This document shows, one piece after another, positions 4,765 to 57,402 of a stretch of DNA of 64,000 bases (its first letter is position 1; each line of letters starts with the position of its first letter). The position numbers and the translations under genes were made by a program. Below the pieces are notes generated by a model. The model saw only the letters and a list, made by a program, of their open reading frames with translations, had not been told where the DNA came from and did no database searches. The stretch is from the UHGV virus genome UHGV-0293664; one strand, 5' to 3'. Source of the DNA: a virus.

Positions 4765-7700
4765 ATGCTTCCAATCCCTTTGCTAAAACTTGGTCGTCAT
4801 TTCCTCGATAAGAGGGGTGGAATTAAGGAACTTGCTGTTCTGTCATACCCAATAGACAACAGTGATGGCACAAGCACTACAGTATCCTATGTAAATAGTT
4901 TAGCTATACTTTTTGATGATGGTCAACTCAATATCACGGGCTATAACAGGTTCGGAGAGTGCCGCACTGGGGGTCTTGACACGATAAACTACCCCAACGA
5001 GGCTGCCTGGAACGTTGATCATGTGTGGAGAGCAGACCGTGCGTTTGTGATCCGAACTTTTGATAACCAGTTTTTCTACATCGGCTGCACTGCAGGGCTT
5101 ATTGGGTCTGATGCTGCAGGCGGTAATGATGTTTGTGTAAGAGAGTGGACACCTCTTCCTGAACAGATCGTTAAAGGGTTGCACCTTGACACCCACCCAG
5201 AGCGCCTTATTGAAGTAATGGGCGGTATTAACAACACTATCTGGGTTATTGCAGAGGCAGAAGGCACTGGCATACTTAACCTGTATGGATCTGGTAACAA
5301 CACCTACGGATCTTTGCATGTAGATAAAAATCAGCATGCAACCCCTGTAAAGATCGGTGAGACATCGGAAAATCCTGAAACAGGCCCTTGGAAAAACCCA
5401 AGCATCAACTGCGAGGTGCATGACAACTCTGTTATTTTCGGTGGTCCTAGAGGTTTCTGGATTGCTGGATACGACTTTCTGAGAAATAACAGTAGAAACG
5501 ATCTTGTTTGGCCTCCTGTGCAGATTACTCGTAACGATTTGAGGGGCATTCCTGCAGATGAGGAGTGGAAAGGGTTTATGTGTGGTCCTAACGGGGCAAT
5601 AATTGCCACACAGAGGATGCATAGACCCGATGACCAGCAGCTTGTTAACGTATTCTACGGGCAAGACGTTTGGGGAGATGACACATGGCGTTCCTTAAAT
5701 ATCACCTACACCCATGAGGTAATAATGGCTCGTGGGTACGGCACAAGTGGCATTTTCTTCAATAATGGCACTAAGCAGTATCGTGGATTCTCTCGCAACT
5801 TGTGTAATGATATTGGCGCACAATCTGCAAACAATAGCCCTAGGGCCAATTTTATCCACTATCAAGCTCTTGCTACAGCTAAATATGTTGAGCAACGCCT
5901 GCCAGTTAGCTGGACAGAGAGTGTTTATTTCCAAGGCATCCACAGGGAAGGTTTCTTAGGAACCTTTACTGTTGTTAATGGTAAACTTTGGTGGTCAGGC
6001 ATCCCAAGGGGGAGTTTTGCAGGCTCTAACAACCTGTTTGGCGGCAGACTTAATAGTCAGGGGTTCACAGAGGTTCCTGAGAATTGGTATAAAAATGTCC
6101 CAGTAGACAGTTGGGATGTTGATGATATTTTCGACGTTAACGGTGTTAGCAGCGTTAGCAATATTTACATTGGTGACACGGTCAAGATGAAATTGAAGCC
6201 TCAGCCAGAAGGGGCTACGTTCATTATTGACAAGATTGAACTGGTAAATGCTGCAGGCACGGTTGTTACAGATGCAAATTACCAATTCTCCACCAACTGG
6301 AACCACGGCGGGGCCAATGAAGTTGTTGTTACCCAGTATAACAGAAATGTTAACAGACGTGGCCTGTACTCTGTAAAAATAACTTATCATGACAAGCATG
6401 GCACAGGCAGAACCCATACGACAAGGACTTTGAACTGGAACACCATAGTTCCTGCGTATCCGTCTAACGGCAAGTGGCATACCGTTGGTAGAAACAAGCA
6501 GTTCCATGTTAACGATACTGTATACTTTGGGCTGAATGGTACTCAGCCTGCAGTAGAAGGTGATACATCATATATGGTCCGACTCCACAGAATGGATGCT
6601 GGATCAGTCACTTACGATGTTACCCAAGAGATTTATGATCAGAGAAGAAATACCTACAACAACTTGGTGCAGACACAGGCCGTATGGGAGTTCAACCCTA
6701 ACGGCAGAGGTGGTAAAATGTTGCAGGTTAACGAGCAAAACGGAACGTCGTTAACTGTCCACAAACACCCAGACCCTTGGCCTGATCCTGGAAAACCTCA
6801 CCCAGGCGCTCGTACGCTGAAAATTGTCAGCCATGATGTAGGATATTTCGGAATACGCTGGGAAGCTACAGTAAGGTATGCCGACGGGACAACAAACAAC
6901 ATAGGGATTACACTTGGTGGCACCAGTGAAGATAACTCGCTGAAAATTGCCTACACTCCTAGAGGTATATCTATTGACAATATGGATGTTGTTCGCAATG
7001 GTTACGGCGATGTGAATGTCAAAGTTACTCTTGGCGAACATCTTGGTGGGGAAAGGATCATCATGTATGCTTTTGATCATGACCCGCGTACCAACGGAAC
7101 TTATGCAAATCAGGCATGGAGTTACCTGATAAATGCACCTGGGCCGAATACTAAAGAGTTCTACTACGGCATGAAGCGAGATGTGTGCAAGAAAACAGGA
7201 ACACATGACTGGATTGCTATCTGCGTTAAAGATGAGCGCACAGCTTGGGATGAGCCTGTTAACAGATGGTTCATAGGTATTCCTACCAGAAGTGATAAGT
7301 ATGTCGCAGAATATATTGTATGCATGGGCGGTACCAACCTGAACATGTGTTGGAACGAGGATGCAAACAAATACTCTGATTATGACTATATGAGGGACTA
7401 CTCTTGTAATCAGTGGTTTAACCAATCAACAGGATACCCTCCACGTCAGGCGAGAGTAAACCCTGCAATCTTCACAGATACGCAGGTTTTCTTGACAAAA
7501 CAGGCCAACAAGGTTCAGACCTTCAAGAATAAATACGATCCTAACAAGTGGTTCTACAACTGTTACGGCGCATTTTTCTGGGGACCTGGTGAGTTACCTG
7601 GTGGAGGATCTTGCTTGAATGAGGCAACTTACGCCAGTGACTACATCATGGGGCAGGTCAAGAAGTATAAGATAATCCCCGGTCCTGAGACTCTGGGCAA

Positions 7701-12911: not shown

Positions 12912-13478
12912 TTATTCAAACTGCAATAGTAAATCCACCACCGCGCTAGGTCTGTCAACAAATTCCCCTGGTCCACATGCCCATAAAGGGTATCCGTCTA
13001 CATACCGCCAAATCCAACCTGCAGTGTGGAGTTCGAGCAGGGCAGTACCGTCCTTACTGTCAACCACTCTTTCCCACAGTGTCGGGCAGCGAAGCTTGAG
13101 GATCGGATCCCCTCCCTTATACCCGTCCATGTAGATACCCATTGCAAAGTTCAGCATCATCTTTTTGTGCACCGATCTCTTACTGAGAGTGCTCATCACT
13201 TCCTCTTTGTGAATGTTTGTAAGCTTCTCCTTGGCTATCCGCAGATCGTTGCAACCATTGTTCAGCAAATCTTCTAGACACCTGATCCGAAGGTCGTGAA
13301 TGTCTTTGTCGTGTACCGTTGGCACAGGGTCGTAGCGGTATAGCACTGTTGATACAAGGTTGCTCGGGTGTGGGTCTGACAGCAACCCATAACCCCAATA
13401 CTCTTCTGTATCTGAAAGGACAAGACACCCAATGTCTCTGTCAAGCTTTCCTGTGTTGTAAGCCACATTGACCGCCAT
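12912..13478 (-). CDS. hypothetical protein
   Basis: 188-aa ORF in minus-strand operon. Confidence 0.7.
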   Translation of the reverse strand: MAVNVAYNTGKLDRDIGCLVLSDTEEYWGYGLLSDPHPSNLVSTVLYRYDPVPTVHDKDIHDLRIRCLEDLLNNGCNDLRIAKEKLTNIHKEEVMSTLSKRSVHKKMMLNFAMGIYMDGYKGGDPILKLRCPTLWERVVDSKDGTALLELHTAGWIWRYVDGYPLWACGPGEFVDRPSAVVDLLLQFE

Positions 13479-13480
13479 GA

Positions 13481-13726
13481 CTATAGCTCCACTAGCAAAG
13501 TGCTTTCAAAGTGCCGTTCATGCAGACCGTTGTAAGGGACCACCTCCACAACGCCATCACGAACATATGGGGTCATCATAGTGGTATAATCTCCAAACGG
13601 GTTGGTATTGTCACTAACCACAACCACCTTCTGCCCTTCCTTGGCAGAGTGCCAAATAGATCTGCACTTCATCAGGTGTTCGAGAGCTCCAGGTAAAATT
13701 TTGTTACGTTCTTTACGGGTCTTCAT
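13481..13726 (-). CDS. hypothetical protein
   Basis: 81 aa; tightly packed. Confidence 0.6.
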   Translation of the reverse strand: MKTRKERNKILPGALEHLMKCRSIWHSAKEGQKVVVVSDNTNPFGDYTTMMTPYVRDGVVEVVPYNGLHERHFESTLLVEL

Positions 13727-14172
13727 AACAGGTATAGCTCCTTATGAAAGTGATCTTTTAATTTCTCACTGAGAAACTTCTTGATACCTTCCTCTAAAGT
13801 GTTTTCGATGTAGTCCAGCTTAACTGCTTCGATAGACATATCATAGATCGCCAGCTCTAAGCTGTCAAGTCCCATCATAGCATGAACCATAAGATTTTCA
13901 TCTTCAGATACATTCAGGGGACTTCCTATAACATCTGGAGGCAGAATAGTTTCCCAATTATTCTGGGTGGTAGTTCTCCCCCCCTCTGCTTTACGGCGCA
14001 GTTCGAATGTGTTCTTAGTATAGAACACTTCATAAGAAACGATACGACTGTCGCTCTCATAATAAACGAAGTTCAGGTAGGAGCCTAGCCGCAGTCGGCA
14101 AACTTCCACCCCAAACCATTGTTTCTTATAAGAATTCAGGCTAATGCTGTCGCATTCACGTTTGCTCAACAC
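13723..14172 (-). CDS. hypothetical protein
   Basis: 149 aa; 4-nt overlap with downstream gene. Confidence 0.7.
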   Translation of the reverse strand: MLSKRECDSISLNSYKKQWFGVEVCRLRLGSYLNFVYYESDSRIVSYEVFYTKNTFELRRKAEGGRTTTQNNWETILPPDVIGSPLNVSEDENLMVHAMMGLDSLELAIYDMSIEAVKLDYIENTLEEGIKKFLSEKLKDHFHKELYLL

Positions 14173-14188: not shown

Positions 14189-14422
14189 TTAATCTTCGTA
14201 AATCAGGATTTCTGCTTTAGGTTTTCGTGCTTTCAGATCCAGCTCTATCCAATGCACCATGGCTGTTTCAAGAAAAACAGCCTGGATGCATCCGTCCTCA
14301 GCGTGCCCTACCAACATAACAAGATCTTCACCTTCGTCATCTGCATCACGAACATACAGAATCTCTCCAGATTCAAAGTCTTTCACAACCTGATTGCTGG
14401 ATAATTTACGAATTTTTGCCAT
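14189..14422 (-). CDS. hypothetical protein (distant member of the 87-aa paralog family)
   Basis: 77 aa; adjacent to three tandem paralogs. Confidence 0.65.
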   Translation of the reverse strand: MAKIRKLSSNQVVKDFESGEILYVRDADDEGEDLVMLVGHAEDGCIQAVFLETAMVHWIELDLKARKPKAEILIYED

Positions 14423-14423
14423 A

Positions 14424-14687
14424 TCAGAAACCCTCTAAAAAGCTCTTGTAGAAAACAATCTCAGTGTCCACACCAGTCACAATCTTGTCGTTCCTGATTT
14501 CATCGGTAAGATAGGTGTCAAAACGCAGAACCTGTGTGGTGTTGTCACACATCCACTCAGCTGTGACCATTGCGAAAATCTTAGCATCTTCATTATCCGG
14601 TGTAAATGTTACCACCTCACCGCATTTAAACTTTTCGATAGGTTGAGTGTTAGCTTTCGGCTCTGCGATAGTGATTTTTGTGGTCAT
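14424..14687 (-). CDS. small paralog family protein, copy 3
   Basis: 87 aa, 264 nt; shares CGxVV / FD...L pattern with copies 1 and 2. Confidence 0.7.
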   Translation of the reverse strand: MTTKITIAEPKANTQPIEKFKCGEVVTFTPDNEDAKIFAMVTAEWMCDNTTQVLRFDTYLTDEIRNDKIVTGVDTEIVFYKSFLEGF

Positions 14688-14950
14688 TATTCTCCTCCTT
14701 GTTTTGAATAGCTTGTCTCTCCAAGGATGGTAATTTTGGTATCAAGCTCTGTAACTTTCATGTTTGGTGGCAGATCGTACAACTCCTTATTTTCTAAATC
14801 GAACCCCCACACACAATGTTCTCCTGTTTTGACAATCATAACTATGTTTTGAATGCCGTCTCCGTCGCAACTTACCACGGTCCCACACGGAAAACTATCT
14901 GCACGCTTTTTGTTCTTCACCTTAGAATTGAATACAATGCTAGTAGCCAT
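14687..14950 (-). CDS. small paralog family protein, copy 2
   Basis: 87 aa, 264 nt; MAT...KKR...PGTVV...FDL...ILGE shared with copy 1. Confidence 0.7.
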   Translation of the reverse strand: MATSIVFNSKVKNKKRADSFPCGTVVSCDGDGIQNIVMIVKTGEHCVWGFDLENKELYDLPPNMKVTELDTKITILGETSYSKQGGE

Positions 14951-15213
14951 TATTGTTCCTCCACCATAACTTCGCCAAGAATTTCTATGCAGGCATCCAT
15001 TTCTGTAACAACCAAGGTGTGAGGTAGTTCTGCAAACACCTTTCTGAACAGGTCAAATACCCCAACATATATGTTTGCAGGATGTGATTTTACAACAAGT
15101 GCTGTATTCACATCCCCAAGTTCATCAACAAACATCACCACAGTGCCTGGAGCTACTGAAGACAGATACTTCTTAGTTTTACGGTTTGATGCAAATTTTA
15201 ACTCTGTTGCCAT
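14950..15213 (-). CDS. small paralog family protein, copy 1
   Basis: 87 aa, 264 nt; start/stop abut the next copy. Confidence 0.7.
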   Translation of the reverse strand: MATELKFASNRKTKKYLSSVAPGTVVMFVDELGDVNTALVVKSHPANIYVGVFDLFRKVFAELPHTLVVTEMDACIEILGEVMVEEQ

Positions 15214-15228
15214 AAATAATCTCCTCCT

Positions 15229-16710
15229 TTATTTAGCGTACTCGATTAATTCCACAGTTTTCCCAAAGCTCGGGATATAATTTTTATTATACCCCTCGGT
15301 GAGAACCCATAAAGTATCGTACTTTTTCCACTTGTTGTCAACAGCCTTTTGTTCAAAGTTATGCTCAAAGTATAGGTCGGTCAGGACGATGACATCTTTT
15401 GCATTCGGTATATTGGCATCCAGATACTCGAACACGCAAGCAGCTGTTGTGCCCCATGTTGAGTGGACCTCATAGTTGATCATCTCATCTATGTTACCGC
15501 GAGTGTATACTTTAACCTCTCCAACCTCAGTTGACCAACAGAACATTGTAACCTTAAACTCTTTATACAGATTGCACAATCCGGTGATTTCATTGAACAT
15601 TTTCTTTAAAGTTCTTTGAGAGATCGAGCCAGAAACGTCTAAAGCCACCACAATATCTATGGTGTTTTCCGGATTACGACCAGGAACAATAACGTGCTGG
15701 TTCTTGTTTATAGCCCCAACTTTTCGCATTGTGCTGGTCAAAGACCCAGATCGGCGACCAGGTTTTCTGTAGGTCAGTTCAGCCTTTCGTTTAGACAACA
15801 TGCGTTGCTTAATGATATCTATATAGTTGATTACAGGCTTGCCTCTGTTCTTGACAAACTCACGCACCGCCTCAGGGCAACGACCTCCGGAAGCTTGCAT
15901 TGCTGCCTCCAGCATGTCACCAGAATCCTGCATGGCCTGATCTTTATCAGATTGGCTGATTACAGGTTGTGGCCGATCATACCCCATAGCCTTCCCAAGA
16001 TCATCGCTGGTGCCACCGTTCCCGCTCATGTGATCATCGGTTTGTCGCTTATCTCCTTGGGAGTTATCACCTTTACCGCTCTTACTTTTACCGTTATTTT
16101 GATCTCTTTGCCTATCAAGAACTGCATAGACGTTCTCAGCAATCCATCCATGAAACTTCATGTCGCAGTAGCAGCTGGCTAAGAAACCAAAAGGCTTACC
16201 TTTTACGAACGTAGTGCTTTTCCCCTTCGGGAAGAAAACACAAGGGGGCTTGCTAAAGTCAACCACAAGACCTGTGTTGATAACGTGATCACAAGCAATA
16301 TTGAACAGTTCCGGCTCAAAGCTTTTGCCACGGACCAGGTGATCACAGATAATATGCCCCACCTCATGTGACAGAAGGAAAGCCACCTCTTTCACAGATT
16401 TGGGGGAATAGAAAACTTCAGCCATCTCAAACTGCTCTCCAGTTAGAGAGGCCTTGAGAATAGCCTTGCGTTCATCAGCCAACCCCATAATGAACTCAGG
16501 ACTGTAATAGATGCGTTTATGGTCGGTTGCCATGGTGGAGCACCATGTGTGGTTTTCTACGAACTGTAACCCTGACAGCAGTGTGCCATAAAACGGCAGC
16601 TTTTCAAGGAGATACATACGTGCAGCCTGTAACATTCTCAGGGCATCATCTTTCTGTGAGGCAATGATTTCTGAACTTCTGCTATCCATTAAAACTCCAG
16701 AAGGGGCCAT
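15229..16710 (-). CDS. vWA domain protein with N-terminal putative metallopeptidase-like domain (partner type of MoxR ATPases)
   Basis: 493 aa; HExxH-like HEVGHIICDH; MIDAS motif VVALDVSGSIS. Confidence 0.85.
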   Translation of the reverse strand: MAPSGVLMDSRSSEIIASQKDDALRMLQAARMYLLEKLPFYGTLLSGLQFVENHTWCSTMATDHKRIYYSPEFIMGLADERKAILKASLTGEQFEMAEVFYSPKSVKEVAFLLSHEVGHIICDHLVRGKSFEPELFNIACDHVINTGLVVDFSKPPCVFFPKGKSTTFVKGKPFGFLASCYCDMKFHGWIAENVYAVLDRQRDQNNGKSKSGKGDNSQGDKRQTDDHMSGNGGTSDDLGKAMGYDRPQPVISQSDKDQAMQDSGDMLEAAMQASGGRCPEAVREFVKNRGKPVINYIDIIKQRMLSKRKAELTYRKPGRRSGSLTSTMRKVGAINKNQHVIVPGRNPENTIDIVVALDVSGSISQRTLKKMFNEITGLCNLYKEFKVTMFCWSTEVGEVKVYTRGNIDEMINYEVHSTWGTTAACVFEYLDANIPNAKDVIVLTDLYFEHNFEQKAVDNKWKKYDTLWVLTEGYNKNYIPSFGKTVELIEYAK

Positions 16711-16722
16711 TGGCCCCTGTTA

Positions 16723-17712
16723 TTATTTAACGTGTTTGAAAATACCTGCCAACTCGGTCATTGTCATGCGGGTGGTCTTCATAAGATCTGTCATAGCTTT
16801 CTCCATAATTGGGGATACTACCATAAAGTTTCCTTTAGTGAAACCTTTATTCCAGTCGGTCACCAACAGTGGTTTAAGTCCAGCTCCGAGACGTTCACCA
16901 GTTAAAGCACAACATTTTCGAATGTATGTGCTCTTAAACTGGCTGAATGACAGATCCACTTTCATACCTGCATCGTAGAACGTCTGGCAATAGAAAGTGT
17001 AAGCTTTGGCAATCTCAACATCGTCAGGCAGTGCAGGAACCTCTTCTGTAAGCTCTTCTTCGACCCCTTGAGGCTCTTTTTCCTCTTCGTAAGCCTGTTG
17101 CGTCATCTCTTCAATCTCCTCTACTACAGGCTCGTTTACAATGTCAGAAATGTGCTTGTTGGCTCCACGATTAGCCATGAAGTTTTTAAAATCCTGCATT
17201 GGTGACATATCTTCCTCCCATTCTTCGTCAAAGAGTGCCAGTTTATCCTCTTCCGTTCCATATTGCAAGATGAAATCTTCAAAAGTGTAATCACCTTTCA
17301 ATTTCTCCATACGCTCTTCGCTCAGGTGGAGCATCATCTGCTGGACAATTTTTCGATCAGTTTTGTCTTTAATCAAGACTGCGGTCTTTTTATCTACCAG
17401 ACAGTCCTTTAGAGAGTTGCATCTCAACCCTACCACACAACAGTTATCAACCGCATAAGGGCCTTCATCATCTATCCGCTCTAGAGATGGGTAGAAAGGA
17501 TTTCCCAGTCCGTTTTCATCCGTGTGCATGTCGAAAGGTATAAGGGTATAGTCGCATACTCCATCTCCTAAAAGTTTTTTACCAAATAGGAGATATTCTT
17601 CCCATGACAGGTTGAACTCTATATCTCGTTTCCGTGCATTATTCTGTTTGCGTCTGTATTTTTTGAGCAAGCGCTCTAACTCTTCTGGTGTATAATATTT
17701 TTCAAGATTCAT
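16723..17712 (-). CDS. hypothetical acidic protein
   Basis: ORF track start at 17778 is TTG and overlaps a minus-strand promoter; ATG at 17712 (MNLEKYY...) lies downstream of that promoter. Confidence 0.7.
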   Translation of the reverse strand: MNLEKYYTPEELERLLKKYRRKQNNARKRDIEFNLSWEEYLLFGKKLLGDGVCDYTLIPFDMHTDENGLGNPFYPSLERIDDEGPYAVDNCCVVGLRCNSLKDCLVDKKTAVLIKDKTDRKIVQQMMLHLSEERMEKLKGDYTFEDFILQYGTEEDKLALFDEEWEEDMSPMQDFKNFMANRGANKHISDIVNEPVVEEIEEMTQQAYEEEKEPQGVEEELTEEVPALPDDVEIAKAYTFYCQTFYDAGMKVDLSFSQFKSTYIRKCCALTGERLGAGLKPLLVTDWNKGFTKGNFMVVSPIMEKAMTDLMKTTRMTMTELAGIFKHVK

Positions 17713-17743
17713 GAGTTGTCTCTTGTGCTCTGTGGGTGGAGAA

Positions 17744-17772
17744 ATCTTACCAAGGGCCTGGGAAGATGTCAA
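17744..17772 (-). promoter_or_regulatory. sigma70-like promoter for minus-strand operon
   Basis: TTGACA-17 nt-TAAGAT on minus strand. Confidence 0.6.
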
Positions 17773-17785
17773 CCTCAAAAACGTG

Positions 17786-17814
17786 TTGACTTTACTCTAA
17801 ATCCTCGATATAGT
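17786..17814 (+). promoter_or_regulatory. sigma70-like promoter for plus-strand replication module
   Basis: TTGACT-17 nt-TATAGT, 40 nt upstream of ATG 17855. Confidence 0.65.
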
Positions 17815-17854
17815 GCACCCATTCGAAAGAAAACTAGCATAGGAGTACTTATTC

Positions 17855-18754
17855 ATGGCAAATCTTAACAGTTTTAGCACCAGGTGGCAACAGGATATAA
17901 CAACCAATCTTTCAGCTGGAGATATCCTTTCTGCAATTTACGAGGCTTTGGATGATAAAGCTACTTCAAGATCGGTTTGTACTAATCCGCTAATTCCTAT
18001 AGTGATGAAGGTAATTGAGCGGAGGTTGGTATCCGGGTCTGATAAGTGGACATACCTTGATAATGGAGGGCATACTTACTCCAACGGATATGTTGATATA
18101 AAAGTGGAATACGCAGTATCATACCGCCGGAGCGGTTCTGTAACTTTCAACTTCTCTGGAGGTTTTCGATCTCTGGCTACTTCACCTTTTGTTTCCTCAG
18201 AGGAGAAGTATGAGCTGCCATTTCTTTGGATGATGGCTAACGCGACAGGAAAAACCCCCGTTAGCATCCGAGTAAAATACAACTACAACGGATCTAGTAA
18301 GATCTATGCCGAAAGTGCCTCAGCAAGTTTTTATTTTGTGATGGGGGATGGAATCCTCAAACATATAAAGATGTGCGATATGCATGATGTTATAAATGAA
18401 GTGACTGATAAGAATGTTCTAGTGAAAGACCTCAATAATTTTTATACACCTGGAGACTATTACGTCAACCGCCCACTGTGCATCTTTAATGCCGCACACC
18501 CTTTAGGTGAGTATTTGATCGCCAATAGCGATATTGCCAATAACCGCTTCGAGGTAGCAAGAGTACAGAATGAGGTATTGACATCTTGCAAGAGCGGTGA
18601 TAAGTTTACCGAAGAAGAGATGGGTGTTTTAGAAATGATGGGATATAAGTGTAGCCTTTGGGTAGATGAGGTGTTTAATGACTGCATCTATGGACAGGAT
18701 ATTTACCCGTTAAAGAAGTATACTGATTCCAGTTTAATTTACGCGGAGATTTGA
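17855..18754 (+). CDS. hypothetical protein
   Basis: 299 aa; AGGAG SD 9 nt upstream. Confidence 0.8.
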   Translation: MANLNSFSTRWQQDITTNLSAGDILSAIYEALDDKATSRSVCTNPLIPIVMKVIERRLVSGSDKWTYLDNGGHTYSNGYVDIKVEYAVSYRRSGSVTFNFSGGFRSLATSPFVSSEEKYELPFLWMMANATGKTPVSIRVKYNYNGSSKIYAESASASFYFVMGDGILKHIKMCDMHDVINEVTDKNVLVKDLNNFYTPGDYYVNRPLCIFNAAHPLGEYLIANSDIANNRFEVARVQNEVLTSCKSGDKFTEEEMGVLEMMGYKCSLWVDEVFNDCIYGQDIYPLKKYTDSSLIYAEI

Positions 18755-19029
18755 CTATGATGAAGTCATGTGGTAGTGTATATTATGTTGGTGAGAATGT
18801 TCAGGCAGACAGCGTGTGGAAATCCATTAAGTCTACCACCGACGATGCCTTCTTGAGCGGGTTATGTTTTCCCAGCCCTGGGGACACTCTCCCTTACCCT
18901 GGAGATTTTGTTGTCAACAAGATGGACGGTTATACCGTGTGCCTGATGGTTGAAAAAATCTTTTTAGACACTAGACACAATCACCGTCTTGTGTTAAAAT
19001 TTCAAGAATGTAAAATGACAATTGCCTAA
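18751..19029 (+). CDS. hypothetical protein
   Basis: 92 aa; start overlaps upstream stop. Confidence 0.6.
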   Translation: MTMMKSCGSVYYVGENVQADSVWKSIKSTTDDAFLSGLCFPSPGDTLPYPGDFVVNKMDGYTVCLMVEKIFLDTRHNHRLVLKFQECKMTIA

Positions 19030-19042
19030 GGAGGCCTTGCCT

Positions 19043-19399
19043 ATGTCTAAAGTTACGTATCGTGCAGCTATTTACTGCAATGAACACCCAATCAATAATG
19101 ATGGTCACTGCCTTTTTAAAGAAAATCAGTTGGGCTGTATTGTCCTCCCTGATGAAGGGAAAGGTTATCTGATTGCATTGACAGGGTTTGAGCCTGAAGC
19201 TTTGGAAGCCAATCTGGACTACCTGGTAGAAGAGGGTGCTGCAGACCTGGTTGCCAATGGCCTCTCCATAAACCTTGACGAAGTGGAGCGCTTCATGGGC
19301 AATTACCGTGTAGTGCGTGAGTTTACTATCGAGGTGGAAACTCCAGAGTGGGGTAGCCCTGAAACTAATACCGAAGAAAAAGAAGAGGAGGTAGAATAA
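19043..19399 (+). CDS. hypothetical protein
   Basis: ATG 19043 preceded by AAGGAGG; track start 19022 is TTG. Confidence 0.7.
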   Translation: MSKVTYRAAIYCNEHPINNDGHCLFKENQLGCIVLPDEGKGYLIALTGFEPEALEANLDYLVEEGAADLVANGLSINLDEVERFMGNYRVVREFTIEVETPEWGSPETNTEEKEEEVE

Positions 19400-19656
19400 T
19401 GAAAGTGCAGATTTTGACTAATGCCGAGAAGATGTTTATTGAAGATACACCTTTTGAAGCTGGTGAGCTACAGTTCGTTTATTTTGTTGACTTAGATAAG
19501 GTGTTCCCTGCACTGAATCTGGGTCTGGATGAAGTTCCTCATAAGGTTTTGTGCCAAGTTGTTCGTGCTTTAGCGGCAGATGGGGAGTTCCACACTCTTG
19601 AAGATATCCAGACCTACGGGTATCTTGAACTACAACGAGAAGAAGAGGTGGATTGA
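19399..19656 (+). CDS. hypothetical protein
   Basis: 85 aa; GAGGAGG SD; start overlaps stop. Confidence 0.75.
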   Translation: MKVQILTNAEKMFIEDTPFEAGELQFVYFVDLDKVFPALNLGLDEVPHKVLCQVVRALAADGEFHTLEDIQTYGYLELQREEEVD

Positions 19657-19658
19657 TA

Positions 19659-20039
19659 ATGGCCCGATGGAAGACAACGGTTGACCTGCATGATCAGTGG
19701 TTAGGACGCATCACTGAAGACGGGAAACTAGTAGAGTGGGACAATAAACATGTCAGCGAGTTGGCAAGTATTGTGGCTGGCAAGTTACGCTCCAAGTTCC
19801 CTGAACAACTGGATCCTGATAATTCAAAGTTCGATCCTGAGTTGGAGGATGTTGTATACTACTTCGATACCGTGGATGACTACGATGCGTGGTTTGCAGC
19901 ACGGGAGCTTTACCCACAAGGCTCCGCTATGCGTCAGATGGAAGAAGATTATCCTCCGTGCGAGCAATTCAATAGCGCAATGACTTGCCTCTATGATTGG
20001 GCAGATAAGAACCTTGTCTGGATCCGGACTGCATTCTAG
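19659..20039 (+). CDS. hypothetical protein
   Basis: ATG 19659 after AAGAGGTGG; track start 19653 is TTG. Confidence 0.7.
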   Translation: MARWKTTVDLHDQWLGRITEDGKLVEWDNKHVSELASIVAGKLRSKFPEQLDPDNSKFDPELEDVVYYFDTVDDYDAWFAARELYPQGSAMRQMEEDYPPCEQFNSAMTCLYDWADKNLVWIRTAF

Positions 20040-20054
20040 CAGGCTGTGGCAAGG

Positions 20055-20348
20055 ATGCCACTTAAAAGAGTAATAAGCATGTTATACCAGAAACACAAAC
20101 TTTGTGCAGAAAAAGAGTTAAATTTTGACAAAGTTATCCACAGATATTGTTATGGGAAAACCGGAAGACAACTAAGAAGGTGTACCCCAACATTCTTTCA
20201 CCCCAGTAGACGGCTAAGTCCTGAAGAAGCAACAGCAGAAAGGGTTGCATACAACTGGGAAGTTGTGTACGATATTGACAGATCCGATGTGGCATCTGTT
20301 TTGGAAAACTTTGAAAACACTTACACACAAGTAGAGGACTTTTACTAA
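20055..20348 (+). CDS. hypothetical basic protein
   Basis: 97 aa from ATG 20055; stop overlaps ATG of next gene (TAATG). Confidence 0.5.
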   Translation: MPLKRVISMLYQKHKLCAEKELNFDKVIHRYCYGKTGRQLRRCTPTFFHPSRRLSPEEATAERVAYNWEVVYDIDRSDVASVLENFENTYTQVEDFY

Positions 20349-21532
20349 TGTCAAGAAACGTATTTGAAAGTGGTCAAATCACTGTCCGTGAGTTGCCAGC
20401 TATCATTCAGTTTGCCCAGCGTCATAACCGATCTGTCCTGATTTTAGGACCAATGGGCGTGGGGAAGAGCCAGGTGATGAAGCAGATTGCCGATAATATG
20501 TTCGGTGAGCGAGATGACAACCTGGTTGACGTGCGACTGTCAGATAAAGATCCTGCCGACTTATCTGGGCTACCTATCCCTGTAGAAGCGGATGGAACTA
20601 CACGTACAGTGTTTGCAATTCCAGAATTCTGGCCTGCAGATCCAGACTGGAGCGGGATTATCTTTCTGGATGAGCTTACTCATGCAGATAACTATCTACA
20701 AAAGGTTGCAATGCAGATTATGCTCGACCACAAGTGCGGCACCTATGCATTCCCTAAAGGCTCTGTTTTTGTGGCTGCGGGTAACCGTTCTACAGATGGT
20801 GCGGTTCTTTCGGCGCTCGAAGCCCCTCTGGCTAACCGTTTTATCATTGTAGAAGTTACAAGCAATGCAGAGGTGTTTATTGAGGACTACGCATTCCTTA
20901 ATGGGGTGCATTCCTCTGTAATTGGGTATCTGAAAAGAGTTCCATCAGCTATCGATAATTATGAGGCTATGGCTGAGATTAATTGTCCATCTTTTGCCAC
21001 ACCGCGATCTTGGGTTGCTGCATCTGACATCTTGCACGATTTTGACAGCGGTATTATTTCTGACGCTATGGCCCGTGTTCTTCTGCAAGGTGCTATTGGT
21101 CACACTGCAGCGGTAGAGATCTGGACCTACCACACCAAGAAACGCAACTTACCGGAAATCGGTCGGATTATGGCAGGGGGTTGCAAAGAATACGTAGGTC
21201 CTAAACAGCCAGACATTTTGTGGATTCTTGGATCTGAAGGTTGTATCGCTATTCGTAATATGATGGAAAATGCAAGTATCTCCGACGAAGATCTTGTCAG
21301 CTGCGTGGCAAACTTCCTCGATTTCCTTTGGGAAAACTTCAAAGACGAGAACCGAGATTTTGTATTCTCAGTCTTTATGGCGATGATGAAACCTAATGCC
21401 TTAGGAAATGCCTTGCTTATCGGTAAAGGGCGTGACAAGATTGTTGCTCAGCTGATCAAAGCATACCCAAACCTGATGAAGATTGTAAAAGAGTTTGGTG
21501 AAGAGTTTAGCGCCATTTTGGCTAAAGCTTAA
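20348..21532 (+). CDS. MoxR-like AAA+ ATPase
   Basis: 394 aa; Walker A LILGPMGVGKSQ; Walker B IIFLDELTHA; AAGNRS and LANRF motifs. Confidence 0.85.
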   Translation: MSRNVFESGQITVRELPAIIQFAQRHNRSVLILGPMGVGKSQVMKQIADNMFGERDDNLVDVRLSDKDPADLSGLPIPVEADGTTRTVFAIPEFWPADPDWSGIIFLDELTHADNYLQKVAMQIMLDHKCGTYAFPKGSVFVAAGNRSTDGAVLSALEAPLANRFIIVEVTSNAEVFIEDYAFLNGVHSSVIGYLKRVPSAIDNYEAMAEINCPSFATPRSWVAASDILHDFDSGIISDAMARVLLQGAIGHTAAVEIWTYHTKKRNLPEIGRIMAGGCKEYVGPKQPDILWILGSEGCIAIRNMMENASISDEDLVSCVANFLDFLWENFKDENRDFVFSVFMAMMKPNALGNALLIGKGRDKIVAQLIKAYPNLMKIVKEFGEEFSAILAKA

Positions 21533-53638: not shown

Positions 53639-53656
53639 TTTCTTAACTGAATTATC

Positions 53657-53685
53657 AAGGGGCTTAAAGGCCCCTTTCTTTTTGT
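53657..53685 (+). terminator. intrinsic terminator closing the plus-strand early block
   Basis: AAGGGGC-TTAAA-GCCCCTT then TCTTTTTG. Confidence 0.8.
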
Positions 53686-56201
53686 CTGCTCTTCTCCTAC
53701 CATAAACGGCCCTACCTGGCAAGTGGAATAATTGACTAGCCATCAATCCCACACACTGTACAAATATACATGGAAAATAACTATTGCATAATTTTTCATT
53801 GTGTGGTAGCAAGTCCATTTTTACCCGTTTTCTCTCCCAAAATTGCACGTAATGCCGCTATTGCACAAATTTTAACCTGATGCACATCTCCAATATCTTG
53901 TCAACAACTAAAAATCTTTATAAGTCATACACTTACACAGCATCGAAAGCGTGTTCTACGCGAAAAATCGAGTATAACTATAGCCGCCAGATCTCAGAAT
54001 TCACGTACGCACACCATTCTATAGTCCGCTAAGTATTTATTCCAACCACAGAATAACGGAATAGTCAATACCTGTACAAAATAATTATTCGTATAAACTG
54101 CATAACATAAACCTGTCCAGGTGTCAACATTTTTCGTAAACAGTCTGAAATTGTCACGATAGGTTACTATAATCAGAGAAATCTTTAGTCGTCTAATGTT
54201 TACTGCACATAACTATACTGACTGGAATCATTAGATGACTAATAGAAAGATAAGAAATAGTTAACAATGTAATTGTTTTACCTGTAACAATAAGGCAACT
54301 ATGCAAACGAATGTCATGGCGCGACGGAGTCGCGACATAATATAAAAGCAGTAACCATCACCCCCGTGATAGTTTGTCTGCAAACTATTAATCAGATCAT
54401 AGTTGCCTTGTATTTAGTTAATCATGACATAACAAGCAAGGCAACTATAGATCTGCTAATAGTTGCCCTGCTTTTATATTATGTCATATATTATTAACCT
54501 GTTAATTGTCAGCTTGTTGGATGTTAGCTTGTCAATTATTAACTTGCTAATTGTTTTCATGCAAACGAATGTCATGGCTGATTATTTCTATGTAAATGGT
54601 TTGTTCGTAAACAGTTTATTCGGGAACAGTTTATTCGGGAACAGTGAGGCATGCAATAGTAACAATTGTTATTGTATCCAGTGTGTTGAGTATGCCCAGT
54701 GTGTCCAGTATGTCAGACAAGTTTTTCCTCTCTTTGTCAAGTGCCGCATTAAAAATTTACAAACTGGTATGGTAGCATTTTTGCGGCCCTGTTTACATTC
54801 AGCAGTGTATGTATAACCCTTGTTGTGTGGGCGTTTAGACGTCTAGACGGTTGGAAGTCTACAGGTCAATATCTAATCTATTGGCTGCTAACTATATCCC
54901 ACACAAATAGTAAGAAATATGATTGTTATATGCGTAAACTGTAACTCATGTTATCAATCCCTGTATGTATCGCCAGTGGTTCGCATAATGGGTATTATGT
55001 TAAATTGCCAGTAATGATAACGATTCTCACAATGATAGGTATTCTCATTCATCCACACAAAATAGTTTGCAAATGTTGTGCCACTGTGTGAACGGCCTGG
55101 CCTATTAATTTCTCTCACTGCCTCGATATTTGAGAATTGTTATAAGAATGAGAAGTATTCCCATTCCGTCCGCCTGGCAGCGCTCCTGTAGGTCCTGCAA
55201 GGACTCTAGCTGAAAGCTAGACCCTTCGGGCCTCCCTGTAGGTCAGGTCAAAATCGTGGTAGAATTGGGCCTGTTCAGATATTTCTGGCTGACTCTTCAG
55301 GTCTGTGTGGGAAAAGCCAACCTCTCCGGCGGGGCAGGGGGTCATGACGGTAAAATTGCAGGTCAATTAAAAAATTTACGTGGTGTATGAAGCGCTCTTC
55401 AGGTAAGGCAGGTATTATGGGATGAAACCCTCTTCAGGCAATGATATTTGTGGGTGTGATATTTGCTGGAAAGCCAGATATGACGGGACTCCCGGCGGGG
55501 CAGGGGTAGTACAGACAGGGGAAATATGGGGGATGTGGTTGGGGAAATTGATCAGGCAGGAAGAGTATGGAATATGTTACAGATATGTTAAATATGAAGG
55601 TAGGATATTTGTAGGATTTGTGTGTAAAATCAAAGACTTAAGTGGTGTTGTGGTATTTTCTATAAATAATTCAAGTTTAATAGGCAATATTTGTCTCTAT
55701 CCGCTTTGTGTGGTAAACAGATTCAGATGAGATTGGTTTACAGGTGTATACATAATATACAAATTAAAGATACAAGAAACCCCCCTCCCCCTTCGGCTAC
55801 CATTCACCTTTTCCTCTGACTGGTACTTAAACACTTATTCAGACTCTTCAGGTTATCACCCATATATCATATGGCAGTGACTGGTGTCCTCCGGCCCCTC
55901 TTTCGTCACCCGTCCGCTTCGCCATGCTAATGCCATAGCCAAATGTTCGGTTGTTCACCCTGTTCACTCAGGTGTATCTCCATACCCCTTCAAACCGAAG
56001 AGAACAGAAAACCCGAATTACTCGGTAAAAGAAAAGAGAAGAACTTAATTTTATCAGGATAGGCAAGAATGTCAAGGCATGACTGCTCACTAAACAAGCA
56101 AACAGTCATGTGTGGGAGGTAAGTGATTGTGGTGGTAGGAAATTTAGTTGAAAGATGTGTTATAGGTGCTCCAGCACTTTATCCAGGCAGCTAATTGTGT
56201 G
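53686..56201. other. 2.5-kb non-coding, AT-rich, repeat- and palindrome-rich region at convergence of plus and minus transcription
   Basis: No convincing ORF; direct repeats, large inverted repeats and tetraloop hairpins (see findings). Confidence 0.7.
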
Positions 56202-57102: not shown

Positions 57103-57402
57103 CTATACCCATGAAGGCTTGTCTAGGTTTGAGTAACTAAAAGGTGTCAAAAGGTGACTGTCAAAATCTTTCAAACTATCCAGATCTTTTTCCTCGTCTT
57201 GACACCATCTGTGCCTACATTTATTGTTGTAGTGCATGGAGTGCATAGCGTTCTGCAACTTAACAGGTACAAGGGATTCAGGAGTAGATAGTATTGTTGG
57301 GTATGCCAGAACCACCTCAAACAATGGAAACACATCGAAACTGAAGTTTATTTCTGCTGAGGTTGCTGGCATATAGGAGTATTTAGCTGTCGTTGTAGAC
57401 AT
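57103..57402 (-). CDS. hypothetical protein
   Basis: ATG at 57402 after GAGGTGG; track start 57414 is GTG. Confidence 0.65.
   Translation of the reverse strand: MSTTTAKYSYMPATSAEINFSFDVFPLFEVVLAYPTILSTPESLVPVKLQNAMHSMHYNNKCRHRWCQDEEKDLDSLKDFDSHLLTPFSYSNLDKPSWV

Follow-up and report, generated by a model that had tools for sequence, protein, structure and literature searches.

The NorQ-NorD, CbbQ-CbbO and midasin families are established systems and serve as analogues of mechanism for the genes considered here. In NorQ-NorD and CbbQ-CbbO, an AAA+ hexamer is combined with an adaptor bearing a metal ion-dependent adhesion site (MIDAS); the adaptors possess no peptidase domain and the systems serve a defined metalloenzyme client. 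In phages, the N4-like group (Schitoviridae) carries a two-gene module that encodes the ATPase gp24 and the von Willebrand factor A (vWA) protein gp25; the two genes lie side by side in the same orientation, both belong to the set of 14 core genes of this group, and in N4 itself they are classed as middle genes (PMC4193335), the module being expressed before the late genes. Here, we describe a computational analysis of the homologous pair in a 64,000-nucleotide stretch of viral DNA (UHGV virus genome UHGV-0293664, referred to below as the window), in which the gene for a MoxR-like ATPase and the gene for a protein joining a putative zinc peptidase to a vWA domain lie 3.6 kb apart on opposite strands. 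We favor, with moderate confidence, the view that these genes are the Vequintavirus copies of an ancient and widespread module, the same as N4 gp24/gp25, which functions as an early accessory remodeling and protease machine in counter-defense (or in host takeover).

Searches with tblastn from both window proteins reach N4-like phages at approximately 21-28% identity, and some of the matched records are annotated 'N4 gp25-like'. The hexamer-and-adaptor logic of NorQ-NorD and CbbQ-CbbO is common to the window pair at 16-22% identity. A 'chaperone-cochaperone pair' of the same architecture, a MoxR-like ATPase with a vWA protein bearing an N-terminal metallopeptidase, has been described in group 2.2 jumbo phages (PMC7824862), and the window proteins match those of RaK2/121Q-type, PA5oct and Erwinia jumbo phages. 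For the jumbo-phage pair, a function in assembling the virion was proposed, whereas the orthologues in phage Bas54 are dispensable for plaque formation on Escherichia coli K-12 and point to counter-defense. The ternary systems of Kaur et al. (PMC7159879) have in common with the window pair a MoxR-like ATPase and vWA core and a role in biological conflict, but they are host-encoded and contain a third component and an effector, whereas the window pair is phage-encoded and has neither. The nearest described genes are bas54_0063 and bas54_0055 of Bas54, orthologues that show no substantive difference from those of the window; the preprint that studied them is silent on the peptidase partner and on the split module. 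The annotation of the genes, the module itself and the phenotype of the orthologue are thus already known. What we have not found reported elsewhere is that the split is a derived state found in three genera only, that the separated genes still flank a single predicted bidirectional early promoter region, and that in public transposon data the peptidase gene is significantly depleted on the same host as the ATPase gene, in a manner specific to this partner.

The 6.3-kb region that holds the pair is 90-96.5% identical in DNA sequence to 115 full-length phage records, nearly all of which are labelled Escherichia phage, genus Vequintavirus; the close records include rV5, FV3, Murica and several BASEL phages. 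In the public records of several Vequintavirus relatives the genes already bear the labels "MoxR ATPase" and "putative metallopeptidase". A first-pass annotation of the window, made from the sequence alone, had called phage modules of this kind poorly characterized, which is only partly true given these many annotated records and a phenotype in an orthologue 99.7% identical to the window ATPase. Both open reading frames (ORFs) that it described are present on the strands it gave, and every motif that it quoted is found in translation:

15229-16689, minus strand: gene for the putative zincin-metallopeptidase and vWA(MIDAS) protein (DUF2201_N + DUF2201; N4 gp25-like), 486 amino acids; the ORF as listed extends to 16710 (493 amino acids)
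16339-16368, minus strand: zinc-binding/catalytic motif HEVGHIICDH (HExxH plus a downstream histidine), from translation
15625-15639, minus strand: vWA MIDAS motif DVSGS, from translation
20348-21532, plus strand: gene for the MoxR-like (AAA_5-type) AAA+ ATPase (N4 gp24-like), 394 amino acids; phrog_1297, E 1e-110
20447-20470, plus strand: Walker A motif GPMGVGKS, from translation; G37, G39, K40 and S41 invariant
20663-20686, plus strand: Walker B motif FLDELTHA, from translation; D108 and E109 invariant
20774-20842, plus strand: sensor-1/arginine region AAGNRS...LANRF, from translation; N146, R147, N163 and R164 invariant

Invariance in the ATPase refers to an alignment of 50 homologues, and residue numbers of the peptidase/vWA protein follow the 493-amino-acid form. 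The start codon of the latter is likely ATG 16689 rather than ATG 16710, because a GGAG lies 5 nucleotides upstream of the former, the latter falls in the loop of a hairpin, and the GenBank relatives have the 486-residue form.

The two domains of the peptidase/vWA protein are readily recognized. DUF2201_N (PF13203) matches residues 95-321 with 99.1 bits against a cut-off of 23.2 (E 4e-28), and the vWA-like DUF2201 (PF09967) matches residues 353-488 with 43.7 bits against 26.4 (E 3.5e-11), so that both Pfam models exceed their gathering cut-offs in N-to-C order. This result agrees with the first-pass annotation, which had placed an HExxH-like motif and a MIDAS in one protein. When 52 homologues from phages and bacteria are aligned, H115, E116, H119, H124 and D141 are invariant in the first domain and D358, S360, G361, S362, T421 and D445 in the second, residues that by their pattern constitute a zinc site and a complete MIDAS (DxSxS...T...D). 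Every fold match listed in a structural search with the model of this protein is a vWA domain, that of NorD among them, and the vWA fold proposed for the 493-residue ORF is therefore upheld. For the N-terminal domain, the matches returned by a profile search against the PDB are only weak and lie around the HExxH helix (selecase MJ1213, E 0.014; BepA, 0.095; HtpX, 0.35), while a direct sequence search of the protein against the PDB and a search of the PADLOC library gave no match. By its conserved motifs, the protein would be an active peptidase.

The classification of the ATPase required a less direct route. All of the MoxR-type Pfam models fall below cut-off on the window protein (AAA_5, 16.7 bits against 22; bpMoxR, 15.4 against 27, E 0.01; AAA_3, no match), and the profile search for AAA_5/MoxR that the first-pass annotation had proposed as a check was thus negative. 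Pfam, NCBIfam and PADLOC return only sub-threshold P-loop matches, the best in PADLOC being DpdH (E 5.6e-4). Homologues found at E ~1e-45 (~35% identity over 85% of the length) contain AAA_3 or AAA_5, and one or the other of these models is matched by 20 of the 50 aligned family members (E 1e-3 to 2e-9), none of them from the Vequintavirinae. An AlphaFold (AF2) model of the window ATPase has a pLDDT of 85.3; when it was compared with the PDB by Foldseek, the 13 best matches were NorQ chains and CbbQ2 (E 5.5e-8 to 2e-6, target-normalized TM 0.56-0.65), and a profile of the family has midasin (AAA_5) as its best PDB match (E 1.8e-10). The protein also possesses an extra helical C-terminal region of ~120 residues. 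As the direct hidden Markov model matches are all sub-threshold, we classified the protein by transitive homology, structure and synteny, and on this basis it is a divergent MoxR-like (AAA_5-type) subfamily, not MoxR proper. The MoxR-type assignment of the first-pass annotation holds with respect to the nearest structures and the domains of relatives, and fails insofar as no Pfam model of that type is passed.

The association of the two genes is maintained across a wide range of genomes. The viral set that we compared comprised 80 IMG/VR loci and five further loci, of which one was bacterial; the second sample held 80 bacterial genome loci, mostly from Campylobacterota. Of the viral-set loci outside Vequintavirus, 73 have both genes; in every one of these the DUF2201 gene is located downstream of the ATPase gene on the same strand, and in 71 the gap is below 400 nucleotides. 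In the bacterial sample the pair is adjacent in 64 of 75 loci, the partner is on the same strand 0.6-5.5 kb downstream in nine more, and no locus with the pair has the opposite-strand arrangement. The expectation that these genes are normally co-operonic was thus borne out in ~150 sampled viral and bacterial loci. A bacterial chromosome, a 155-kb metagenomic phage and an N4-like phage all have the DUF2201 gene immediately after that for the ATPase. Of the records in the phage collection, 813 contain the ATPase and 695 the DUF2201 partner, and the two tallies track each other across host genera (for example, Escherichia, 214/212; Pectobacterium, 26/26; Cronobacter, 17/17); the phages that hold the pair include N4-like podophages, jumbo phages of the RaK2/121Q type, PA5oct, Erwinia phages, Bacillus phage G and cyanophage S-TIM5. 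The architecture of the DUF2201 partner is represented by 14,417 cluster representatives (50% identity, E<=1e-30), many of which are bacterial. Across the lineages compared, we found no third gene that is conserved either between the two or next to them. Elsewhere in phages the pair adjoins genes of nucleotide metabolism (thymidylate synthase, ThyX, dUTPase), and in Sulfurivermis a ferrochelatase gene is located two genes downstream.

In the window, the ATPase gene lacks the adjacent vWA-domain partner gene that its relatives have. As the first-pass annotation had noted, the two genes are on opposite strands around a divergent promoter region, with other genes between them; there are seven of these, a minus-strand Srd-like gene and six small plus-strand genes:

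16702-16718, minus strand: GC-rich perfect hairpin AGGGGCC-AAT-GGCCCCT at the junction of the Srd-like and peptidase/vWA genes
16723-17712, minus strand: Srd-like 'anti-sigma factor' gene, 329 amino acids, first of the minus-strand early arm; phrog_3118, E 9e-112
17744-17814: back-to-back sigma70-type promoter-like sites found by consensus scan, at 17772-17744 (minus) and 17786-17814 (plus)
17855-20348, plus strand: six small genes, from the promoter region to the ATPase gene, with no Pfam matches

Comparison with related phages indicates how this order arose. The ATPase and DUF2201 genes are adjacent in Certrevirus PBES02, and in phage A5-4 (Vequintavirinae) the order is ATPase, HNH homing endonuclease, DUF2201. 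The divergent order, with the partner behind the Srd-like gene on the other arm, is found in Vequintavirus, Mydovirus (KpS8) and Seunavirus (4MG). As KpS8 and 4MG are split in the same way as the window while PBES02 and A5-4 are not, adjacency is ancestral, and the split is a derived state, restricted to these three genera and at least as old as their common ancestor. In that ancestor, a rearrangement of the early region would have placed the partner gene on the other arm of the bidirectional promoter region, and both genes would have been kept thereafter. Since the split, both proteins have diverged in parallel, to ~50% and ~45% identity between genera, and the genes lying between them are mostly genus-specific; the small gene at 19653-20039 is the only one of the six also present in Mydovirus and Seunavirus, and the Srd-like gene is confined to lineages with the split arrangement. 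Genes for a SleB-like hydrolase and a PIF1 helicase also lie on different arms in Certrevirus and Vequintavirus, from which we infer that the early region has been reorganized more than once. A simple model in which a single inversion produced the split was dropped, as these two genes had also changed arm. HNH homing-endonuclease genes adjoin the module in two relatives, at 5449-5958 in KpS8 (downstream of the peptidase gene) and at 13285-13779 in A5-4, and homing-endonuclease activity could have aided rearrangement of the locus.

The promoter region between the two arms contains, on the minus strand, TTGACA-17-TAAGAT at 17772-17744 and, on the plus strand, TTGACT-17-TATAGT at 17786-17814, each matching 10 of 12 consensus positions. 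The scan taken alone is weak evidence, since it found 16 promoter-like sites in the region where 12.7 +/- 3.6 were expected, but the rV5 RefSeq record places a sigma70 promoter, P11, at the equivalent position, so that the divergent promoter region proposed in the first-pass annotation is retained. A second rV5 promoter, P4, is located just upstream of the ATPase gene. The stop codon of the last small plus-strand gene overlaps the ATPase start codon (TAATG), and the ATPase gene is therefore part of the plus-strand transcription unit. On the opposite arm the Srd-like gene starts at ATG 17712 and not at TTG 17778, which would overlap with the promoter; it lies directly upstream of the peptidase/vWA gene, has weaker PHROG matches to the Srd anti-sigma and sigma70-decoy families, and is labelled anti-sigma factor in Bas49 and Bas54. 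Host RNA polymerase probably still expresses both genes of the pair together at an early stage. The hairpin at 16702-16718 separates the Srd-like stop codon from the peptidase/vWA start codon, and its loop contains the upstream in-frame ATG 16710; this hairpin could act as an attenuator or partial terminator, or as an element of RNA processing or stability, that sets the ratio of the two products.

The function of the pair is approached through Bas54 (phage MaxBurger, MZ501093.1), which was studied in the HIDEN-SEQ preprint (2025, 10.1101/2025.11.20.689424). The window ATPase is identical to bas54_0063 at 393 of 394 residues (99.7%), the peptidase/vWA protein is identical to bas54_0055 at 476 of 486 (98%), and the gene order of Bas54 is that of the window. 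On K-12, transposon insertions were recovered at 60 of 64 TA sites in bas54_0063 and at 81 of 86 in bas54_0055, and both genes are non-essential, whereas the structural genes tolerated no insertions (10.1101/2025.11.20.689424). On the clinical isolate CFE311, which carries the defense system DS-28, insertions in bas54_0063 were depleted roughly 150-fold (log2 fold change -7.23, adjusted p shown as 0.00000), and a clean deletion of this gene rendered the phage sensitive to cloned DS-28 (10.1101/2025.11.20.689424). The supplement of the same study also records a depletion of bas54_0055 on CFE311 of ~4.6-fold (log2 fold change -2.20, p 0.0009, q 0.009; 10.1101/2025.11.20.689424). On this host no depletion is seen in any of the seven genes between the partners, the Srd-like gene included, or in those immediately beyond each partner, which argues against polar effects. 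The module is thus accessory rather than a core function of replication or assembly: in an orthologue that is 99.7% identical, the ATPase is dispensable on K-12 and is needed against DS-28. Neither gene is mentioned in two other phage transposon or essentiality studies or in CRISPRi-ART. One sheet of the preprint's Extended Data Table 8, 'resampling_K-12_vs_CFE303' (Data S6), contains the command line and the numbers of the CFE311 sheet (Data S7), and the supplement thus seems to lack the Bas54 results on CFE303.

These observations, together with the conserved architecture, suggest a working scheme for a counter-defense machine that draws on NorQ-NorD, CbbQ-CbbO and midasin. By analogy with these families, the ATPase hexamer would dock onto the vWA domain, and the MIDAS would capture an acidic residue of the target, either a component of a host defense system or a phage protein that such a system attacks. 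ATP hydrolysis would then remodel the target, and the attached putative zincin domain would cleave it. The narrower proposition that the split genes still specify a single ATP-driven protease machine directed at a protein of host immunity (for example a component of DS-28), which it would capture and cleave, is tentative, and we regard it as possible rather than probable. If it is true, the DUF2201/MoxR-like family, which is core in N4-like phages and common in jumbo phages, would constitute a general device for targeted remodeling and cleavage, and Vequintavirus would provide its first genetically tractable case, in which the genes are dispensable and the phenotype is clean and conditional. 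The family is very large and lacks demonstrated biochemistry; the rV5-like phages offer a convenient handle on it, because both genes are open to knockout, the ATPase has a strong host-dependent phenotype against DS-28, and each of the separated genes can be manipulated without a polar effect on its partner.

Several points weigh against the counter-defense interpretation of the pair. The depletion of the peptidase gene on CFE311 is ~4.6-fold against ~150-fold for the ATPase gene, and bas54_0055 is one of 27 significant genes among ~230 on this host, so that its depletion may be unrelated to DS-28. The authors' second anti-DS-28 gene is a different one, bas54_0140, which encodes 99 amino acids (10.1101/2025.11.20.689424). 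The literature shows an interaction, proteolysis or a target for no member of the DUF2201/MoxR-like family, and in the window promoter activity and early timing are predicted from the scan and from the rV5 annotation. The functional data come from a preprint whose supplement includes a mislabelled duplicate sheet. Finally, the module is core in N4-like phages and present in >14,000 clusters, and it is unlikely that its sole purpose is to counter one rare plasmid-borne system (DS-28 belongs to a small, two-gene, plasmid-associated and uncharacterized system family); the effect on DS-28 may therefore be a by-product of some more general activity.

Of the other explanations, functional uncoupling of the two genes survives best, and we consider it unlikely. 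In this account the ATPase defeats DS-28 without the peptidase/vWA protein, perhaps with a protein of the bas54_0140 type, and the peptidase/vWA protein, encoded beside the Srd-like gene, has a separate role in host takeover. The arrangement is the only opposite-strand one among the ~150 sampled loci, the two depletions on CFE311 are of very different size, and the main text of the preprint names bas54_0063 and bas54_0140, without mention of bas54_0055, as the anti-DS-28 genes (10.1101/2025.11.20.689424). The window encodes an orthologue of bas54_0140 at 57103-57402 (minus strand), a 99-residue ORF that belongs to phrog_12072, has no Pfam match and is identical at 92 of 99 positions (93%); its product might be a client of the ATPase or an alternative partner for it. 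However, both genes of the pair are present at >=95% amino acid identity in essentially all Vequintavirus records (ATPase, 118; partner, 119), neither has been lost from Mydovirus or Seunavirus after the split, the residues of the MIDAS and of HExxH are still invariant, and the peptidase gene is significantly depleted on CFE311 (q 0.009) while its neighbors are not.

The pair might instead be a chaperone that inserts a metal cofactor into, or reactivates, a phage or host metalloenzyme, in the manner of NorQ-NorD, CbbQ-CbbO, CoxD-CoxE and the chelatases. The closest solved structures are indeed NorQ/NorD and CbbQ, and the genes for thymidylate synthase, ThyX and dUTPase that lie beside the pair in other phages, like the nearby ferrochelatase gene of Sulfurivermis, could be read in the same way. 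We regard this as improbable, since it leaves the invariant, putative zincin active site unexplained, no conserved client gene was found among neighbors that differ between lineages, and the genes are non-essential on K-12 with a phenotype tied to a defense system of the host.

A role as a virion-assembly chaperone with a maturation protease has the standing of a published hypothesis: Iyer et al. (2021), drawing a parallel to the MoxR-vWA pair p618/p892 of Acidianus two-tailed virus, proposed that the same pair in jumbo phages serves virion assembly and the proteolytic processing that accompanies it (PMC7824862), and MoxR-vWA pairs are in general assembly or maturation chaperones. The first-pass annotation had likewise suggested the remodeling of a virion complex. 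For the window pair such a role is improbable, as it is disfavored by non-essentiality and by early-gene position: on K-12, insertions are tolerated at >93% of the TA sites of both genes but at none in structural genes, and the pair is found in early or middle regions, near sigma70-type promoters and genes of replication and nucleotide metabolism, and not in structural modules. Membership in a ternary, nucleoside triphosphate-dependent conflict system (Kaur et al. 2020), in which the pair would be a thresholding switch for an effector and which the first-pass annotation had raised, is scarcely credible, for although the MoxR-like ATPase and vWA core is common to both and bpMoxR is matched weakly by the window ATPase (E 0.01) and by 6 of 50 relatives, that match is well under its cut-off (15.4 bits against 27), the defining third component is absent (no VMAP, inactive STAND, FtsH or beta-propeller; definition in PMC7159879), a Pfam scan of eight neighboring genes gave no match, and no neighbor is conserved with the pair.

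Several records of these families contain errors. The PHROG and RefSeq label 'HNH endonuclease' for the DUF2201 family (phrog_1314) is a misannotation, and it is spreading; the same label has been wrongly put on the Srd-like family phrog_3118 in both resources. An 89-amino-acid ORF upstream of the ATPase gene (phrog_13164) is labelled 'ATPase' though it lacks a P-loop, an error that is spreading through many records. In the rV5 RefSeq sequence (NC_011041, 1501-2962), the peptidase/vWA gene has a 1-nucleotide insertion at approximately position 1249 of the gene, just past the MIDAS threonine; the annotation therefore divides the gene into two overlapping ORFs, gp012 and gp013, and the final ~70 vWA residues fall out of frame. 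Either the insertion is a long-standing sequencing error, or the gene has been knocked out naturally in the type phage.

The peptidase/vWA gene is followed immediately, on the minus strand, by three 87-amino-acid ORFs in tandem (14424-14687, 14687-14950 and 14950-15213). The products of the second and third are 39% identical to each other and both match phrog_10698, and a 77-amino-acid ORF at 14189-14422 is more distant; 14424-15213 is a small paralogous early-gene array.

Farther along the window, between 53,640 and 56,200, ~2.5 kb without a substantial ORF separate the end of a plus-strand gene block from the start of a minus-strand block. The part from 54,250 to 54,930 is dense in direct and inverted repeats, with 4-5 copies of ATTATTAACnnGnTAATTGT-like units, one 20-mer repeated exactly at 54301 and 54559, and an 18-nucleotide inverted repeat free of mismatches, and the 53,640-56,200 stretch contains no tRNA and no Rfam match. 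It corresponds to the Bas54 intergenic region 92,785-95,298, where no transposon insertion is tolerated (10.1101/2025.11.20.689424), and is a candidate replication origin with iterons. Finally, sixteen 'Campylobacter phage' records (MG0656xx; host given as Campylobacter jejuni) are ~95% identical in the region of the pair to rV5-like phages of E. coli, which suggests that these records are mislabelled or contaminated.

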